This document shows, piece by piece, positions 4,179 to 60,365 of a DNA stretch of 64,000 bases; the first letter of the stretch is position 1; every line of letters starts with the position of its first letter. The stretch lies in contig OX597836.1 in NCBI GenBank assembly GCA_951406725.2, positions 13,888,001-13,952,000 on the forward strand. Direction: 5' to 3'. The position numbers were made by a program, and so were the translations under genes. Below the pieces are notes generated by a model that saw only the letters and a program-made list of their open reading frames with translations, made no database searches and was not told the DNA's origin. This DNA comes from Octopus vulgaris. Its lineage: Eukaryota.

Positions 4179-4403
4179 GGAGTAAACACATAAATGTGAA
4201 ACAAGGTGGAAAAAAGAGTACTCAAATACCAGTGGTAGAGTAATATGCTTTATTTTAAGCAGCAGAAAATTCAACAAAATCTGTTACTCTGAGTTCCTCG
4301 TTGCCGTTCATCAGACAGTTTTTGCTAGAAAAACTGTCTGATGAACGGCAACGAGAAACTCAGAGTAACAGATTTTGTTGAATTTTCTGCTGCTTAAAAT
4401 AAA

Positions 4404-5517: not shown

Positions 5518-6385
5518 GTAAGTAAGCTTGCTATTTAAAGATAATATATGAAGTTAACAAACCGTTGCCATGTTCCGTTTACTTTTGCTGTTGGTTTATA
5601 AAGAAGAGAAAATTGGCCAAAACAAGTCGTTGTATCTTGGTTAAAAATAAATTTATTGACGCTAATATTTTGTTAAAAGCCTGATATTTGTTGCTGTTGC
5701 TGTCAGCTTGCTTAGTTAAAAAAACAGAAGCCACTCGGTTTTGTATTTATGATACAGCGAAACGATTGTCACTCGATATGAACTCACGGCCTAAGAATTA
5801 GTTGTGACACCTCGGTGGTTTAAGCAGTTTGTCGGTTTGTTTTGATCCTAACGCTGGGAGAAGATTCGAAAACCGTGACAAGAATGAAAGAAAGTATTCT
5901 AGTACCAAACTGACCAACGTATGCTTTATGATGTTAAGAGCGTAAAGTCCAGTTTTACAATATATTGATCAGAAATATGAAATGTCTGATGCCTTCGAGG
6001 TAAAAGTATCATCTCTCCAATAACCTATTTTTTTACTACCCACAAGGGGCTAAACACAGAGAGGACAATCAAGGACAGACAAACGGATTAAGTCGATTAC
6101 ATCGACCCCAGTGCGTAACTGGTACTTAATTTATCGACCCCGAAAGGATAAAAGGCAAAGTCGACCTCGGCGGAATTTGAACTCAGAACGTAACGGCAGA
6201 CGAAATACCGCTCAGCATTTTGCCCGGCGTGCTAACATTTCTGCCAGCTCGCCGCCTTAACTTGGTGCCTTGATAAATACATCATTCATATCCGGTTCGA
6301 ATTTTGAAGATAAATTTCGTTATTTTTATATGACTATATATATATGTATCAATAATTACTGCCTATGATATTATATTATATCTAG
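5518..6385 (+). other. Probable 5'-UTR intron of CFAP57
   Basis: Donor AAA|GTAAGT at 5518 (alternative GTAAGC at 5522). Acceptor ...attatatcTAG| at 6385, 4 nt before the ATG. Contains a SINE. Confidence 0.5.
6024..6257 (-). mobile_element. SINE family B, full-length
   Basis: Head ends ...GCCAGCTCGCCGCC at 6257; body and tail match the other copies. Confidence 0.85.
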
Positions 6386-6389
6386 AAAG

Positions 6390-9300
6390 ATGGTTATCGC
6401 GACAGCCTCTGTGAAGCATATTTTCGGCTTGAATTCGGATGTTGCTGGAAACCTATGTTACCAAGATGAACAAAAAGTTCTTTATACCTGTGGCTCATTC
6501 TACGTGGTGTATAATATCGACCAGAAATCGCAGAAATGTATCGTCGCATCAGAAACGGGTCTTGGAATCTCTTCTTTTGTCATCAGTTCCAACCGAAGAT
6601 ACATAGCCATTGCCGAAGTAGGGGATGACAAAGGACCTATTTTATCGATTCATGACATCCATGCTAACAGAAAAAGAAAAACTTTAATGGCTACTTCAAG
6701 CGATCAAATTGTCCAGGCCACGGAATATAAAAGCCTCGCTTTTTCACCTGATTCTAAATATCTCGCCGCTCATACGGGTGGTCCCGATTGGGTTTTACAA
6801 TACTGGGCATGGGAAAAATCAAAACTTTTGACCTTTATACGTACAGTTAACCCTCAATCCAAACCTATTATTTATCAAGTGTGTTTTAATCCACAAGATA
6901 ATACCCATATCGGCGTGATTGGCAACGGCGTATTGAGGAGTTTCCGCTACTCAGAAGGTAATCTGAAGCCGTTTAATTTCCCTAAAATCGAGTCCCAAAA
7001 TTTCACCTGTTTCACATGGATATCAGACGAACGTTTACTCGTCGGTACTGATAAAGGGAAGGTTCTCGTGATTGAATCGGGCGAGTCCAAAGCAGAATTC
7101 AACCCGCTCACTGACGCATTTTTAGAATCAAGATCTAAAGATTCCCAATCGAAAGAATTAGTTCGTTACATTACTAAAGACGAATTCAAAGACCAGTCAA
7201 CAGAGGTGTCGGCTATCGTGGCCTACTCAAAAGGGTTCGCTTGTGCATGTGGTGTGGGCACCGTTCATTTGTTCGAACGTTCAGAAGAAAAAGAACTTTA
7301 CAAAAAGACCCGAGAAGTGCTTATTCCTGTAGATAATAGTGTTACTTTACCTAACAGTAGTACCTACAAGCAAATAATAACATGTATGACGATCAGCCCA
7401 TCAGAAGAAACCTTAGTGGTTAGCAGTAACACCAACCAGATTTACAGCATCGCTTTATCATCAACTGATCTAAGGCCCGGGGGTCAGAGGTTACTGAATT
7501 TCGAGCTTCTAGCTCAAAGTTTCCACTCTAATGTTGTCACTGGTCTTGATATTTGTGCTCGCAAACCAATTGTCGTTACATCTTCACTCGATCGCAGCAT
7601 CCGTATTTGGAACTTCGAAACTTGCTCGCAGGAATTATTCAAGGAGTTTTCAGAAGAGATATGCAGCGTTGCCCTTCATCCATCTGGCCTGTATATCTTG
7701 GTGGGTTTCACAGATAAACTTAAACTCATGAATATTCTTATTGACGAAATCAAACAATTCCAGGAGTTTCCATGTAAGAACTGCCGCGAATGTGCTTTTA
7801 GCAATGGCGGACATCTTTTCGCGGCTGTCAACGGTAATGTAGTCCAGATTTATTCGACCGTGACATTTGAACTCATTATCAACCTTAAAGGTCACAATAA
7901 ACTAGTTAATTCCGTTGTTTGGAGCCCCGATGACAGCAAATTAGTTTCGTGCGGGGGAGACGGAGCTGTGTATGAATGGGAACCTCTTACAGGAAAACGA
8001 GTCGGTGAGAATATTCTGAAAACATGCGTCTATAGCACTGTGACAATATCGCCTGATGGTAAAACCGTCTACGCAGTCGGCAACGATAATAAATTAAAAG
8101 AAATAAGCGATTCGCAGGTTTTTCACCAAGTCGAAGCAGGCGACGTGACTTTGACCAGTGTCTCTCTTTCGCACACTGGTCGAATGCTGTTTGCCGGAAC
8201 CAGCAATGGTTGTTTATGGAGTCTGAAGTTTCCGCTTGGGTCGAGTGGAGAATGGCAAGAGTATAAAGGTCACAGGAGTAAAATAACGAGAATGAGGGTC
8301 ACTTTCGATGACCAATATCTTGTCAGTGTGTCGGAAGATTCCACTGTAATGGTTTGGCAAATCCAAGATAAAGACAGTCGTGGCATCAAGCGTGATAAGG
8401 ATTCTCTGCGATGTGTTTACGCGGACGAGATTCTTATAACAAAAAGTGATCTGGAAGAAAAAAATGCTATCATGTCAGAATTGAGAACCAGAGTTAACGA
8501 ACTGGGAATGGAAAATGAGTATCAACTAAGATTAAAAGACATGAATTACAATGAGAAAATCAAAGAACTCACCGATAAGTTCATTCAGGAAATGGAATCG
8601 CTGAAAACTAAAAACCAGGTTCTGAAAACTGAGCGAGATAAACAGGAAGCGAAACACGAAGAACAATTAACAGGAATTATGCAAAAACACGCCAAAGAGC
8701 TTCAAGATTTGGAGTCTGCAAATAACCAAAAATTAATGCTGGAATATGAAAAGTACCAAGAACTGCAAACCAAACTGATGAAAATGCAAGAGGAAAATGA
8801 ACACCGCTTGCAAGAAATGGACGAATCGAAGAAAAATGCTTTAAATGAAATGGAAGAAAAATTCGAAAGTAAACGTCTTGAAATGGTTTCGAAACTGCAT
8901 CAGTCCCAGGAGGAAAATCGCCGTAGACAGAAAGAGGAAGAACTCACGAGGAAAATGATGGAAGAAGATGCAGATATTGAAATCTTGAACATAAAAACAG
9001 ATTTGGAAAGGGAGTTGCGTCGGGAAAAGGATTCTAACGTAAAGTTGAAAAGCGAGAGCGGAATTCTGAAACAGAAGTTTTCCACGTTGCAGAAGGACAT
9101 CGATGAACACAAAGAAGCCAGTCGCAAATATCAAGACGAAATCAATAAGTTGAATACGGTTATTCGCAATTTAGAGAAAGACATTTTAGGTTTAAAAAAA
9201 GAGATCTTGGAGAGAGACGAAACTATACAGGACAAAGAGAAACGTATTTATGACCTGAAGAAGAAGAACCAGGAACTGGAAAAATTCAAATTCGTTCTTG

Positions 9301-10157
9301 ATTATAAGATAAAAGAATTGAAAAAGCAAATCGAACCTCGAGAGGACGAAATTAAACGAATGTGCTCCCAAATCCAAGAGATGGAGAGTGAATTGGAACA
9401 ATCTCGAAAGTCTAACATCAGTCTGGAGTTGAAGATAACCGACTTGAAACAGAAACACAACGCTACATCAAAAGCTCTCTATCAAAAGGGACAATTGGTG
9501 AAAGATACCGAAGCTCTGGTGATGCGTTTCAAAACGGATTTACATCGCTGCGTCATTTATATTCAGGAACCGAAGTGTCTTAAAGAAAGCATCAAGTGTT
9601 TGTACCGGAAATATGTACAGGACGACATCACGGAAACGGTCAGTGTGGACGCTGACATACAAAAGGAAGAACATCGCCAACGAGAGCATTTAAATCATAC
9701 GGTGACTTCTCTGAAGAGAAAACTTGTGACTGATTCCAGAATACACCGAAAGGAGAATGTCAAAATCATGCAAGAGAATGTGCATCTTATCAAAGACATA
9801 AACGATCTACAACTGGAACTCAAGTCGTGCCGCACCAATATACACGATCTTGAAGCGGCCCTCGGTATGCACAGCAAGTCGTTTAAGAGAAGCGCAAGCA
9901 TGAACGATTGGAGGAAGGACCCAGTCGAACTGCTGGCTGCCATGGCTAATAAATCTCCCAGCGCCATTCAGCACAGCGAATTGATGGAAAGCAAGCGGAT
10001 GCTGGAAATTCAAAGAGACGAGATCAAACGCTTGCGTCAAGAACTGGAGACACGGCCGCAGTCGTCGGGGACTCCGAAGTTGCCACCCGTCTTAAAGGCC
10101 AACGACGAAGATGAGGCAGTGATAAAGAGCGATAGTCCTCTCGGCCATAACAACTGA
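6390..10157 (+). CDS. CFAP57: Cilia- and flagella-associated protein 57 (WDR65), single coding exon
   Basis: 1255-aa ORF with N-terminal WD40 propellers (GLDICARKPIVVTSSLDRSIRIWN, FSNGGHLFAAVNGNVVQIY) and a long coiled coil carrying CFAP57 signatures (EILITKSDLEEK, ENEYQLRLKDMNYNEKIKEL, DKEKRIYDLKKKNQELEKFKFVLDYKIKELKKQIEPRE). Confidence 0.95.
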   Translation: MVIATASVKHIFGLNSDVAGNLCYQDEQKVLYTCGSFYVVYNIDQKSQKCIVASETGLGISSFVISSNRRYIAIAEVGDDKGPILSIHDIHANRKRKTLMATSSDQIVQATEYKSLAFSPDSKYLAAHTGGPDWVLQYWAWEKSKLLTFIRTVNPQSKPIIYQVCFNPQDNTHIGVIGNGVLRSFRYSEGNLKPFNFPKIESQNFTCFTWISDERLLVGTDKGKVLVIESGESKAEFNPLTDAFLESRSKDSQSKELVRYITKDEFKDQSTEVSAIVAYSKGFACACGVGTVHLFERSEEKELYKKTREVLIPVDNSVTLPNSSTYKQIITCMTISPSEETLVVSSNTNQIYSIALSSTDLRPGGQRLLNFELLAQSFHSNVVTGLDICARKPIVVTSSLDRSIRIWNFETCSQELFKEFSEEICSVALHPSGLYILVGFTDKLKLMNILIDEIKQFQEFPCKNCRECAFSNGGHLFAAVNGNVVQIYSTVTFELIINLKGHNKLVNSVVWSPDDSKLVSCGGDGAVYEWEPLTGKRVGENILKTCVYSTVTISPDGKTVYAVGNDNKLKEISDSQVFHQVEAGDVTLTSVSLSHTGRMLFAGTSNGCLWSLKFPLGSSGEWQEYKGHRSKITRMRVTFDDQYLVSVSEDSTVMVWQIQDKDSRGIKRDKDSLRCVYADEILITKSDLEEKNAIMSELRTRVNELGMENEYQLRLKDMNYNEKIKELTDKFIQEMESLKTKNQVLKTERDKQEAKHEEQLTGIMQKHAKELQDLESANNQKLMLEYEKYQELQTKLMKMQEENEHRLQEMDESKKNALNEMEEKFESKRLEMVSKLHQSQEENRRRQKEEELTRKMMEEDADIEILNIKTDLERELRREKDSNVKLKSESGILKQKFSTLQKDIDEHKEASRKYQDEINKLNTVIRNLEKDILGLKKEILERDETIQDKEKRIYDLKKKNQELEKFKFVLDYKIKELKKQIEPREDEIKRMCSQIQEMESELEQSRKSNISLELKITDLKQKHNATSKALYQKGQLVKDTEALVMRFKTDLHRCVIYIQEPKCLKESIKCLYRKYVQDDITETVSVDADIQKEEHRQREHLNHTVTSLKRKLVTDSRIHRKENVKIMQENVHLIKDINDLQLELKSCRTNIHDLEAALGMHSKSFKRSASMNDWRKDPVELLAAMANKSPSAIQHSELMESKRMLEIQRDEIKRLRQELETRPQSSGTPKLPPVLKANDEDEAVIKSDSPLGHNN

Positions 10158-12423: not shown

Positions 12424-13899
<1,476 letters not shown>

Positions 13900-16289: not shown

Positions 16290-17795
16290 AAACTGAATGA
16301 TTGCTTTATCATTTGGAATGAGACCATTGATAAACTTTTGGAATTTAAATCAATACTAAATAATACAAACCATTACATTCAATTTACAATATTCGCAGCT
16401 GAGTTTTCACGTCAGTCAATGAATCAAAATATCATAGTGGTTTCGCGCCATTATCATTGAGACCACTCAATCTTGGAGGCGCCAATGCTGTCATTTAGTT
16501 ACTGGGGAAAAGCTAGCGAATGTATACTGAGGTTTCTTTCAGCAAGGAACAGCTCCTTTTCTTAGATTAATAAAGTCAACAACTAAACTGTAGCTTACAT
16601 ATATCATAAGCCATCGGACTCGAAGCAATATCTTCTGTTTAGCTCATGACACTCGAAACGCGTCAAAAGGAATATCTCCTTTAATTTAGTTAAGAGGATT
16701 TGCACACCAGTGTCTGTTGGAAATACACGGAACCCCCGTCTTCAAGACCTCAGAAAAACACTAACTGAAAGACAATATCCACCCTCACTTATAGACGATG
16801 AAATTAAGCATGCCAAGACACTAGGCATTAAAATACTAAGGGAAACAAAACACAACACCATACCTCGTCTCAAAACACTACTGTATATATCAACTCACAA
16901 CCCTAGAAATAATGAAGCTTACAATATTATTGTGCAAAATCTACCTTTGCTCACTAGAGATCCAAAAATGAACAACATTCTAAAAACACATAAATTCATC
17001 AAATGCAGAAAGCGACACAAATCGCTGAAAAGTCTTCAGACAAATGCAAAGTTTTACACAACAACCACGAAACCAACGCTTAAAAAATGTGAACGCCCAA
17101 ACTGTGTAACATGCCCGAACCTACTGGAAAGCTTGGAATTCCTATTCAAACAAGGAGAGGTTCACAATTAAAGCCAACTTCACTCGTGCTTCCGAGAATC
17201 TAAGTTATGTTATAATTTGTTCAGGTTGTGGACATAACTATATAGGACAGACAAGTATGACATTTAGACGGAGAACCACACTGCATAAGGAACAGATCTG
17301 GTTCCTGCAGTACAGACATATTTCTTTGAGTGAACACAGAGAGATGTGTGTATATCCAACCAAGCTTTACAGTTTGCCCCTTCTATCAGTGCAAAGGAAC
17401 AATTTCTGTACAATAAAGAAAAGTTTTTATCAAAAAATACAGAACAAGCATCAATATGAACTCATAACCAACTTTGGTCATAGTATATATTTTCATTCAT
17501 GATCACATACCCATCACTGTAAATATTTCATCTCACTACCTTAGCTTTTGAGTTTTTGAATATTTATCCCCTCCGCAAACGTGGAGCAATTATCTCCTCT
17601 GACCTGAATAATAACGATCACCAATTACCTTCCCTTAGATTTTCTACTTGCTGATTCATTCATTCAGAAACTACTCTGCACAATCAATATCATGATTAGT
17701 GAAAACGAAACCAGTCGACAAACACAACACGCTTTCACTTACAAAATATATTTAAAAGTATATTAAAACTATGTAAATTGTGTGCATATTCCTTC
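16290..17795 (+). mobile_element. 5'-truncated Penelope-like element (RT C-terminus, CxxxxCxxC linker, GIY-YIG), Neptune-like, disrupted
   Basis: Broken frames give DCFIIW...IQFT, KEQLLFLD, YHKPSDSKQYLLFSS, RQYPPSLID, KCERPNCVTC and NLSYVIICSGCGHNYIGQT. An inverted copy of its 3' end lies at about 15829-16295. Confidence 0.85.
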
Positions 17796-21641: not shown

Positions 21642-22526
21642 GACAAACAGAGACAGAGACTGTCAGGGAGATAGATATATAGACAGACAGACGGACAATG
21701 AAGAGAGAGAGAAAGATGCAACCAGTACTCGGCTGGTATTCATTTACACCTGAATAGACTGAAGCCACGTGAAATGAAGTTTGTTGTTCAAGGAAGACAC
21801 AATACGCTGTCCGATCCAGGAATCGAACCCACGATTTTATGATGGTGAGTCAAGTTGGATCGTGTTAAATTTCTTCCAACCATTTGAAGTATTTTTATTT
21901 TTTCAAATTTTATTTCTTTTCTTTCCTGGAAATTAAAAATAACAAAGTTACGAGCATTAAAATTATGTAATTTTAGCCAATCAGAAGCCTACTTTGAAAC
22001 CAATTTAGAAGTTTCAACTGTCTGTCTCTATGAATATCAAAAACGACGCAGGCGTGGCTGTGTGGTAAGAAGCTTTCTTCCCACCCATGTGGTTTCGGGT
22101 TTAGTCCAATACGTGGCATTGGGACGACCAAAGCATTGTGAGTAGATTTGTTTGATAGAAACTGAAAGAAACCTCAGTATACATTCGTTAGCTTTTTCCC
22201 AGTAACTAAATGACAGCACCGGCGCCTCCAAGATTGAGTGGTCTCAATGATAATGGCGCGAAACCACTATGATATTTTGGTTCATTGACTGACGTGAAAA
22301 TTCAGCTGCGAATATTCTGTGTATCGTGTCTTTGTCAATATTCCATGTCCGTTACGTTTTCGTCTAGTTTCCCGTTTGCTCTGCTTTCGTCTTTTGTCGT
22401 GTTCTGTCTGTCCAACCCTTGATATACATATATATATAGTGAGAATTTACAAAAAAACAAAAGACGAAAACGGGTGTGTAAACAACAAACAGATGTATTA
22501 GTTTAACGCTCGGGAAGTGAGAAGGT

Positions 22527-26156: not shown

Positions 26157-26578
26157 TGTTGTTGTTGTTTTTGTTGTTGTTGTTTTTGCTTGTTGCTGAC
26201 GTTGTATGTATTGTTTAGCCCCTGGTCGGTCTCGATGAGTAAGCAAAAGCATTCCAGCAATGACCATCCCGTGGGGATCGTATATCTGTAACTACGTTAT
26301 ACAATGCAACAGCGTTTCTCCGTTGTTTTTATTCTTCGAGAACTTTCGATATCCATTCCATATTCCGGGGAACCTCTGCACAAAACTTAATACATATTAC
26401 ATATCTTTGTTAATCTTCTTTGTGTCTTTTTCATAATGTTAAATTTCATAGGGGATTAAACAACTGAAGAAAGCCACCAAAGAGATCAACCGTCGTAGCT
26501 AAAACCAGCTCTCTTCGCGTAAGGGTTTCTGTATGTGGTTCATAAGAGACAACATAGAGATACCCTTGCGCAAAGACT

Positions 26579-27022
26579 AATTCAGCCCACGCTGACCCTC
26601 TCAGGCGAAGCGTACAGACTAAGGAGCAAAACGCTTGTGAATCTGAGATACCGGCTTATGATAGTGGAAAGGAGCGAAACACTTGTAACCCTGAAATACC
26701 AACTGAAGATAATGGAAAGGAGTGAAACGCTTGTGACTCTGAGATACCGGCTGATGATAACGGAAGGATTTCCAGCATTGTGATTTCCAGCAATGATTTC
26801 CAGCATTGTGTGCTCCTGATTTTGCTGCTCACATCCTGGGCCTTTAAAATCTATACAAATTTATACAGTCACCCTCATATAAGCGTCGGTATAAAAGAGC
26901 TACGTACACTTCTTCGCAATGGTAGAAACTTTTCCGCTATCATTAGCTGGTATCTCAAAGTCCCATGCGTTTCGCTGCTTAGTTTGTACGCCTCGCCTGA
27001 GTTGGGTAGCGTAAACTGATTT
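26579..27022. repeat. Foldback with ~95-bp arms and internal 3 x 48-bp tandem repeat
   Basis: Arms about 26579-26670 and 26930-27022. GGAG(C/T) unit starts at 26623, 26671 and 26719. Confidence 0.85.
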
Positions 27023-38648: not shown

Positions 38649-38873
38649 TTTATTTTAAGCAGCAGAAAATTCAACAAAATCTGTTACTCTGAGTTTCTCG
38701 TTGCCGTTCATCAGACAGTTTTTGCTAGAAAAACTGTCTGATGAACGGCAACGAGAAACTCAGAGTAACAGATTTTGTTGAATTTTCTGCTGCTTAAAAT
38801 AAAGCATATTACTCTACCACTGGTATTTGAGTACTCTTTTTTCCACCTTGTTTCACATTTATGTGTTTACTCC

Positions 38874-40921: not shown

Positions 40922-41564
40922 CTAATGTAGGATAAAATTTTTTTCGGGAAAAAAATTTTATCAATGGCCAGCATATCAAAAAATACCTTTAAAGGTTAAA
41001 TTTATAAATAATTTACAAAATAAGGGCAAAAGAAAAATTCTAATGCCAAATATGCCGAAAAAAAGACAAAATTGTCAATAACCATTATAATTTATGCGTC
41101 TCGAAACAAACCGATAGAAATTTCTAAAAATCCGTTATTACCGTATTGGTCCCAATTTCGGGGTTAATTCGTAAGAATTTTCCCCTCTTCAGCGATAAAT
41201 ACGTGAGATATAAATGAAATACTTACTCATACCCACGGAAAAAGCAAGCACTAAGTCCTGAGCAGACCTAAGTACCCCAAATATATCCAAAATAGAAAAT
41301 CTTCGGCACATCTCGAGACACGTGTGATTCGAACTAGAAACTTTCACAGAGTGAGAGAATCCGGAAGTGAACACTTTTAATTTATAACTAATGTAGGATA
41401 AAATTTTTTTGGGGAAAAAAATTTTATCAATGGCCAGCATATCAAAAAATACCTTTAAAGGTTAAATTTATAAATAATTTACAAAATAAGGGCAAAAGAA
41501 AAATTCTAATGTCAAATATGCCAAAAAAAAGACAAAATTGTCAATAACCGTTATAATTTATGCG

Positions 41565-43407: not shown

Positions 43408-43543
<136 letters not shown>

Positions 43544-43808
43544 CTGATGCTCGTTGCTTAGTTTTTCTTGGAGGGCTGGCCGTGATCTGGTAATCTCGGG
43601 ATTGATCAGCCGAAATTACTACGATGATCCGGTTCTTGGCTGGGGACTGGGGGTTTCGAATGTCCTGTCCGTGTTTATTGTGTCGTCTTCTAAGAGTTAT
43701 ACGTTCTTGTCCATGTTGTATTTTTCTACATACCTTAACATATATTCCAGGCGCCCCGTACCCCCCTTAACATTAATGTGAGCACATATTCTTAATAATT
43801 GGTACGAC

Positions 43809-50399: not shown

Positions 50400-50720
50400 T
50401 ATAAGGATGTTTTGCAAACAACTTGTACATGCAATTGCTACCAGTCGAGAACTCCGCATACCGGAAGCTAGCAGGTGTATGGGGTCATCAGGAGAGAATG
50501 CGCACCGTTTCGAGGTCTATCTTTCGACGGCATCAATGCGCACCGGCCCTCCTCACTGATATGAGGCTCCGCTTGCTAGATCAACTGGTTATCAAATAAA
50601 GCTCAGTATTCTTCTAGCCATCACTCATCGTCTCTTTTTAACAAAATCCAGTGGCTAGCCTTCTCCACTGTAGTTTGGATATCGGTCAGGGTGATATTTA
50701 CTTTACGATGAGTTAGGCCT
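50400..50720 (-). mobile_element. HERO/NeSL-like RLE LINE 3' end
   Basis: Reverse complement translates GLTHRKVNITLTDIQTTVEKASHWILLKRDDE*W, resembling the E(K/R)AS.W(L/I)WLKR C-terminus of HERO elements, followed by a structured 3' UTR. Confidence 0.6.
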
Positions 50721-50779
50721 AACGATAACAACATATATATATAATATAAACAGGGGTTTGACAAAATAATGGAAACTCC

Positions 50780-60107: not shown

Positions 60108-60365
60108 ACATTATTTACATTTGACGGGCATATGGCGTAGTGGTTAAGAGCGCGGGCTACTAACCCCAAGATTCCGAGTTCGATTCCAGGCAGTGACCTG
60201 AATAATAATAATAATAATAATAATATCAAAAAATACCTTAGGAAGGAGAACCCAGGTTCGAAATTTCCCCAAGACACCTGAAGATAGCTGGAGGGTATAT
60301 CAGCCGAAACGTTGTATTAACAACAAACAAGATGAGGACAAATATCCGTCAAATGTATATAATGT
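60108..60365 (+). mobile_element. tRNA-headed short element with hammerhead-containing tail and inverted end
   Basis: A-box TGGCGTAGTGG (60133), B-box GAGTTCGATTCC (60176), (AAT)n, hammerhead motif 60274-60317, 20-bp inverted ends. Confidence 0.7.

Follow-up and report, generated by a model that had tools for sequence, protein, structure and literature searches.

A candidate hammerhead ribozyme with a knotted wiring, opened between A9 and G10.1, in the 3' UTRs of an octopus LINE family and its relatives

Non-circularly permuted hammerheads are known as types SGC, CSG and GCS (Eckert 2023, PMC10085705), and types SGC and CSG cleave in vitro (PMC10085705). The SGC and CSG sequences come from metatranscriptomes or soil DNA, with two unique sequences for type CSG, and neither eukaryotic genomes nor retroelements are among their sources; that CUGAnGA leads directly into stem II is a stated assumption of the same study and is built into its descriptors (PMC10085705). 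According to Craig et al. 2021 (PMC8557442), canonical hammerheads are missing from Naiad retroelements. CUGAnGA and GAAA in Naiad 3' UTRs are listed there as 'HHR_core' and 'HHR_half_core', with no descriptor fit and no structure proposed. Type I hammerheads in LINEs with a restriction-like endonuclease (RLE) are not reported in the accessible parts of PMC8557442, PMC7229834 and bioRxiv 10.64898/2026.07.22.740005.

Here we analyse a window of 64,000 nucleotides of Octopus vulgaris DNA (the whole stretch). An earlier note had claimed, on its minus strand at 50579-50468, a complete hammerhead core whose strands follow a pseudoknotted order that is not a circular permutation. We find this core and order in the repeat family of the locus (family A below) and in its relatives, and each strand of the window copy lies where the note had placed it (Table 1).

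Wiring and conservation of the motif

A profile of 39 proteins led to metagenome loci, of which the best 80 of 337 were used. A strict descriptor, which required stems I, II and b and contained neither helix e nor helix f, gave 36 exact-core matches in 33 of the 80 loci, all sense to the ORF. These 36 matches fall in 0.6 Mb (both strands), compared with two in 11.9 Mb of dinucleotide shuffles. The claimed setting in a LINE 3' UTR was borne out: of the 39 ORF ends followed by 250 nt or more of sequence (a partly redundant set), 35 have the motif within the 3' UTR, 27 as a strict match within 400 nt. The 12 strict misses comprise two that pass with relaxed stems, two recognised by eye with one stem I mismatch, three with the motif farther off, one with a variant core, and four with no motif. 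In one relative (L178:3437-5100 and L179:628-1836) the motif lies 1.6 kb downstream of the stop, and the next ORF begins another 1.2 kb on, a spacing that implies a unit of ~6.3 kb with unexplained extra sequence. In a reverse transcriptase (RT) tree built by a quick method, motif-bearing rows occur on all main branches and the motif label is not clustered (224 of 500 shuffles were as low); rows labelled as lacking it include contigs cut short, so that losses are not countable. One LINE without the knot (L222:4060-4198) has a 3' UTR that by eye looks twister-like with inserted hairpins, and has no twister match in Rfam. If this twister is real, it would represent a ribozyme swap at the same position.

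The strand order of the motif is e-f-f'-II-b-III-UH-I-II'-GAAA-III'-b'-I'-CUGAnGA-e'. Dereplication at 85% kept 25 of 38 matches, and in 24 of these 25 relatives all three junction linkers are zero. The bases that follow CUGAnGA form helix e: with its own downstream end, a motif has a zero-gap e of at least 4 bp in 24/25 cases and of at least 6 bp in 19/25, compared with 15% and 3.5% when downstream ends are swapped between motifs. The same bases form the first pair of a stem II in 0/25, and as a stem II strand the four positions after CUGAnGA are paired about as often as swapped ones (0.41 vs 0.43, or 0.44 vs 0.42 with a 1-nt insertion). The circular C-G-S order of types I, II and III was not found; the blocks run II-S-G-C. 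If A9 is joined to G10.1 and helices e and f are removed, the wiring closes into a ring of blocks S-G-C. Opened between b and stem III this ring is type SGC, and opened between III' and b' it is type CSG; the present motif opens it at A9/G10.1. The break is occupied by a gap-free four-way junction, in which e, f and stem II meet the core end of the A9-G12 stack. Since the strands from 11.1 to G12 and from e to f are continuous, the simplest model, inferred from connectivity, would stack e on f beside the stem II/core stack.

Comparison between relatives supports the helices. A plain, unfitted MAFFT alignment was made of 24 of the 25 motifs plus L147; L182, parsed without e and f, was excluded. 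Its 37-pair structure consists of the commonest column pairs of the alignment itself, and the sequences are related, so the scores that follow are not probabilities. On this structure 85.5% of cells are paired (58.9% when shuffled, 34-44% when slid), 34 of the 37 pairs show two-sided changes with every helix represented, and the covariation score of the 25-motif alignment is 0.58, against 0.19. For helix b, 85% of cells are paired and five of six pairs show two-sided changes. Pairing of stems I, II and b in the matches is by construction, because the descriptor demanded those stems, and the shuffle tests are inflated because the motifs are related; the independent tests are the swap, the slide and helices e and f. 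The covariation across families claimed in the earlier note is thus present in all helices. Chance pairing in a decayed repeat, which the imperfect window copy and the shifted register in which its stem II was first read might suggest, is refuted for the family by this covariation, by the contrast with the shuffles and by the lack of antisense matches; we give it a negligible probability. The structure of the motif, established by sequence comparison, is in our judgement close to certain.

The core is equally constrained. A search that tolerated as many as two core changes gave 31 well-formed matches, and 28 of these keep CUGANGA, GAAA and UH exactly, as the note had expected of homologues. 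One of the three inexact cores is a misregistered parse; the other two (L193 and L194, one element) have U3-A8, a single event in one lineage. Active hammerheads in nature are known to covary between C3-G8 and U3-A8 (PMC3088659). As a compensatory change, U3-A8 would support the C3-G8 tertiary pair. Among the 25 relatives, pair 10.1-11.1 is G-C in 24 and G-U in one, N7 is free (14 U, 5 C, 4 A, 2 G), H17 is never G, and H17 and GAAA are 11-17 nt apart. By analogy with known hammerheads, the motif is likely to self-cleave after H17.

When folded with nested pairs, two relatives form e, f, b and III (z -4.4 and -3.9). The signal is weak in family A and in the window copy (z -1.3 and -1.6), where the stem II strand can instead pair with the stem I strand. 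In the nested minimum-energy fold of young family A, the stem II 5' strand does pair with the stem I strand, a possible misfold. This competing fold, a break at A9/G10.1 that had been assumed impossible, and the constant spacing of the family A priming site would all suit a hammerhead-derived fold that does not cleave alone, acting as a scaffold for RT binding or priming or depending on protein, with the four-way junction perhaps holding cleavage off. We consider this improbable: the invariant bases are exactly the catalytic ones, N7 varies freely, C3-G8 shows a compensatory change, and unrelated RT families (the RLE LINE and Naiads) have the motif in common, unlike the binding site of one protein.

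The claim that standard descriptors would miss the motif was correct, since Rfam finds no hammerhead on a young copy (one chance match) and the published descriptors need CUGAUGA and stem II to be contiguous. Across the whole window, the Rfam matches listed (150 of 408) are simple-repeat noise only; on 11 loci that lack the motif or end before it there were two chance matches, and narrow scans of L222 and L210 gave one more each. An unbroken block C, as in types I-III, SGC, CSG and GCS, was found neither at a score of 12 or more in the 80 loci nor in five family majorities. A weak SGC fit in L166 under relaxed settings is better read as the knot with one mismatch, and an HDV-like reading of the opposite strand was rejected by eye for its helix order.

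Host element and copies of the motif

Family A is a 3.73-kb element with a single ORF of 1100-1175 codons in young intact copies. The ORF contains an RT domain (RVT_1, E=7e-19), and its best PDB matches are R2 proteins (E=2e-49). Towards the C-terminus are a CCHC knuckle (conserved C954, C956, H964, C969) and a PD..E..K endonuclease (P1063-D1064, E1079, K1095). Judged from its protein sequence, family A thus belongs to the R2-superfamily (RLE) non-LTR retrotransposons; it may be HERO-like. Named homologues are from amphioxus, sea hare and fishes (665 of 8000 proteins scored). The family is large, with 2411 candidates in the genome, of which the best 40 were taken.

In the window copy the motif begins 23 nt downstream of the ORF stop, close to the 25 nt given earlier. 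It carries the core C3UGAnGA9, G12AAA15.1 and U16.1-H17, and differs from the family A majority (30 copies) by eight substitutions within the motif. The majority helices are GAGAGG/TCTCTC (stem I), GGGGCC/GGCCCC (stem II), GCCGT/ACGGC (stem III) and GTGCGC/GCGCAT (helix b), and the bases right after CUGAUGA pair with the upstream G run as helix e. Stem II had been read as GAGG/CCTC, a register that is off by 1 nt and fits only the decayed copy; in the family register the window copy has two stem II mismatches, one of them the 10.1-11.1 pair. The helix set proposed earlier included the outer part of e and overlooked its inner part and hairpin f. The window copy is a decayed member of a conserved knotted hammerhead motif and is probably a poor ribozyme itself.

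Table 1. Motif strands and related repeats in the window (positions counted from its first letter)
Feature	Position	Strand	Basis
5'-truncated family A copy: final ~330 nt of an RT + restriction-like-endonuclease LINE with one ORF	50406..50733	-	89.9% identity over 328 nt to young full-length L146
Final LINE ORF codons and TGA stop (50605-50603)	50603..50733	-	
Helix e, 5' strand: outer 50579-50572, inner 50570-50567	50567..50579	-	covariation in relatives
Hairpin f (50566-50561/50556-50551), no linker to e or stem II	50551..50566	-	zero-gap junction in 24/25 relatives
Stem II, 5' strand, 10.1 onward; G10.1 is A in the window copy	50545..50550	-	
Helix b, 5' strand; joins distal ends of stems I and II	50538..50543	-	
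Stem III, 5' strand to U16.1 (50531-50527), and C17 (50526); predicted cut 50526/50525	50526..50531	-	analogy with hammerhead core
Stem I strand 3' of predicted cut; one mismatch (5/6 bp)	50520..50525	-	
Stem II 3' strand 50517-50512; G12-A13-A14 50511-50509; stem III 3' strand 50508-50504	50504..50517	-	
Helix b 3' strand 50503-50498; stem I second strand 50497-50492; CUGAUGA 50491-50485	50485..50503	-	
Helix e, 3' strand, begins immediately past A9; outer part 50475-50468	50468..50484	-	
Family B motif (22222-22295), decayed, non-coding ~850-nt repeat unit, same architecture; A9 changed	22186..22316	+	
Second family B copy (16482-16409), duplicate of the 22.2 kb copy	16388..16531	-	
Family C motif (43574-43646), decayed, tandem ~850-nt non-coding unit; A6 changed	43541..43660	+	
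Older family C copy (12776-12830), 5'-truncated (by eye)	12776..12840	+	
Family D motif (26570-26662), decayed (old RLE-LINE 3' end), then two local repeats of its 3' half; G12 changed	26570..26758	+	profile match E=5e-4

The recurrences noted near 22183, 43546/12781 and 26591 are present, in decayed form. Beyond the window, the majorities of families B and E fit the six-helix layout with no linkers, that of family C fits with two unpaired bases after A9, and that of the old family D, altered at G12, is missed by the descriptor and was read by eye. Exact-core matches were obtained in 43/73 loci of family A, 6/30 of B, 23/30 of C and 8/30 of E; the sole one among family D loci is an A-type neighbour. 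A sequence-only profile matched the family D window copy and did not find the B and C copies; its family A match is not independent. Families B and C are non-coding units, C frequently in tandem, and no autonomous partner was found for either. Family E has 365 exact genome matches to a 17-nt piece of a published cephalopod Naiad 3' end, and in the 30 loci retrieved truncation leaves too little for an ORF upstream of the motif, which in a Naiad would have an N-terminal GIY-YIG ahead of the RT, to be visible.

Several other features of the window were recorded. At 16545-17480 (+) lies the decayed 3' part of a Penelope-like element with a GIY-YIG endonuclease at the C-terminus and a CxxCxxC linker; a link to family B was rejected, as the adjacent motif is a duplicate that shares the flank of the 22.2 kb copy. 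A palindromic repeat with CTGATGA on both strands (4314-4370, 38714-38770, 38992) resembles the inverted termini of a further Penelope-like repeat whose core is conventional. Motifs that look like ordinary type I hammerheads occur at 41192 (-), by descriptor, and at 60278 (+), by eye. An open frame of 1262 codons at 6369-10157 (+) encodes WD40 propellers and a coiled-coil tail in an intron-rich genome, and is possibly a retrocopy or a single-exon gene.

Element ends, partial tandems and a possible circle

The earlier note had cleavage making the 3' end of the element. This is not supported, as terminal family A copies end ~118-122 nt downstream of the predicted cut. A fixed 5' end is lacking: of 30 copies reaching the 5' part (two of which share a flank and may be one event), 24 continue without a break into an upstream 3' end, and 18 of these extend beyond the upstream cut site. 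The other six begin 28-70 nt later, and no copy begins less than 12 nt from the unit boundary. Truncation points are not piled at the cut (one of the 30 copies starts exactly there), which counts against the processing proposed below. Of 22 loci examined, 18 have both repeats, with subfamily variants common to the two. The lack of a fixed 5' end, the partial tandems and a 3' end ~120 nt past the cut fit a cleaved, circularised template.

We propose that the ribozyme would cut read-through transcripts of partial-tandem elements once per unit, and that the unit-length RNA would be closed into a circle, probably by an RtcB-type ligase. The element RT would then prime inside the circle, ~120 nt past the cut, and go round more than once, regenerating the partial tandem. 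In a monomer running from cut to cut the priming site lies near the 5' end, so that the ORF could be copied only via a circle, a clean template jump or uncut RNA. The circle is favoured because identical repeats are regenerated and because RtcB circularises retrozyme monomers; both the circles themselves and RtcB's part in animal retrozymes are described in PMC7229834. By analogy with retrozymes, a circular RNA intermediate is on balance the reading we prefer. The whole chain, a self-cleaving hammerhead of the SGC/CSG family opened at A9/G10.1 with processing via a circle, is likewise one we lean towards.

We think an active ribozyme with no circle less likely. Here the RT would copy uncleaved read-through RNA from a tandem master, or jump cleanly between identical molecules, and cleavage would only trim the 5' end of the message, limit element RNA or aid translation. 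Precedent comes from a Poseidon element (PMC11167929): unprocessed RNA was the main in vitro substrate, killing the canonical hammerhead left in vitro insertion unchanged, no RNA ends mapped at the cut, and priming was internal. This counts against a cleavage-dependent circle, because the hammerhead is not needed there in vitro. The scissile bond of family A shows no indel in 103 copies, and its integrity in every insertion is expected from uncleaved RNA too. Three young tandems have 5 G in the G run of the upstream repeat and 6 G in that of the downstream repeat. This difference also counts against the circle, because one template copied twice would need slippage; the run itself varies, with 5 G in 12 of 30 young terminal copies. 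Linear copying, however, would shorten the upstream repeat each round and allow the repeats to diverge, yet repeats of up to 2 kb persist in family A, and one variant among 48 copies is exclusive to both repeats of a single insertion. Ten metagenome contigs also have the order C-terminus, UTR, N-terminus, an order that repeat assembly can yield as well. Four runs guessed to be RNA, in contig form, show no ends; one contig there joins itself with a 1.25-kb period, which tandem DNA explains equally.

Six loci (L301, L307, L308, L312, L313 and L314) hold family A tandems that repeat every 570-1430 nt rather than every 3730. These appear to be internally deleted units that retain both ends, and are candidate non-autonomous circles.

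Naiads and known hammerheads

The published Naiad consensus file (PMC8557442), inspected by eye, shows the present layout in at least ten places, with 54 Naiads listed: three Acropora, two Octopus, one Beroe (weak stem I, named from the next header) and four unnamed records. The motif listing covered 16 of 43 CTGAAGA and 16 of 23 CTGACGA, and line breaks can hide cores. Type CSG was seen by eye in at least eight nematode Naiad records of the same supplement (S5 parts 13-16), four named from the next header and four from file order. We therefore suggest, from inspection of these sequences by eye, that 'HHR_core' and 'HHR_half_core' may be the present fold or type CSG. Among the matches listed for bivalve Naiads no motif was seen by eye. 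In spider and ostracod Naiads (S5 parts 16-19) CUGAnGA seems to lead into a helix with its other strand immediately 5' of the stem I strand; this may be a third wiring, into which the full core could not be fitted by eye. Identity of Eckert's CSG-1 with the nematode Naiad sequence was not supported, the layout being alike and the sequence different.

The earlier note knew of no precedent for a non-circular order. That part does not stand, since types SGC, CSG and GCS exist and have the same helix b. What is new is the A9/G10.1 break and the four-way junction, both of which the note saw only in part, and the setting in animal LINE and Naiad 3' UTRs; unexplained cores had been recorded before in Naiads. 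A literature search that left subscription papers and Repbase reports mostly outside turned up neither this wiring, nor a knotted hammerhead in any retroelement, nor any hammerhead in LINEs of this kind; none of the three is described in the parts consulted of PMC13725137, bioRxiv 10.64898/2026.07.22.740005, PMC10162972, PMC12192606, PMC6155905 and PMC7650587. The widest form of the proposal has a seventh natural hammerhead wiring, opened within the block considered unbreakable, as the processing ribozyme shared by a widespread R2-superfamily LINE clade and Naiads, knotted hammerheads common in animals once nematode CSG is included, and a 3.7-kb circular RNA with internal priming; for this we put the chances at about even.

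The rule that CUGAnGA must run into stem II is broken, and knotted permutations move from a few environmental contigs to animal genomes with thousands of copies. The apparent absence of hammerheads from Naiads is offered a direct answer, which would remove the argument that the hammerhead is a dispensable passenger. A LINE lineage is seen to behave like Penelope elements, with no fixed 5' end and partial tandems, and the idea of a circular RNA intermediate can now be put to the test in a relative of R2 that has young, intact copies. For engineered ribozyme switches, the four-way junction at A9/G10.1 offers a new attachment point.

R2 5' ribozymes are of the HDV-like class. With them the present motif would share the principle of releasing an R2-superfamily element from within a longer RNA by self-cleavage (PMC7650587), and it differs in class and position; the R2 5' end is defined, whereas that of family A is not. 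With the type I hammerheads of Penelope-like elements and retrozymes it shares a core near the 3' end or in a pseudo-LTR, and partial tandems; those hammerheads differ in their C-G-S order, the lack of a core pseudoknot and an often minimal stem III. The closest relatives are type SGC (HRIMA-1) and type CSG, which have the same core, the cyclic S-G-C order, a short linker between stems I and II, and a fourth helix that joins the distal ends of these stems and may abut stem III. Unlike both, the present motif never leads from CUGAnGA into stem II (0/25) and has the additional helices e and f, which make the junction four-way.
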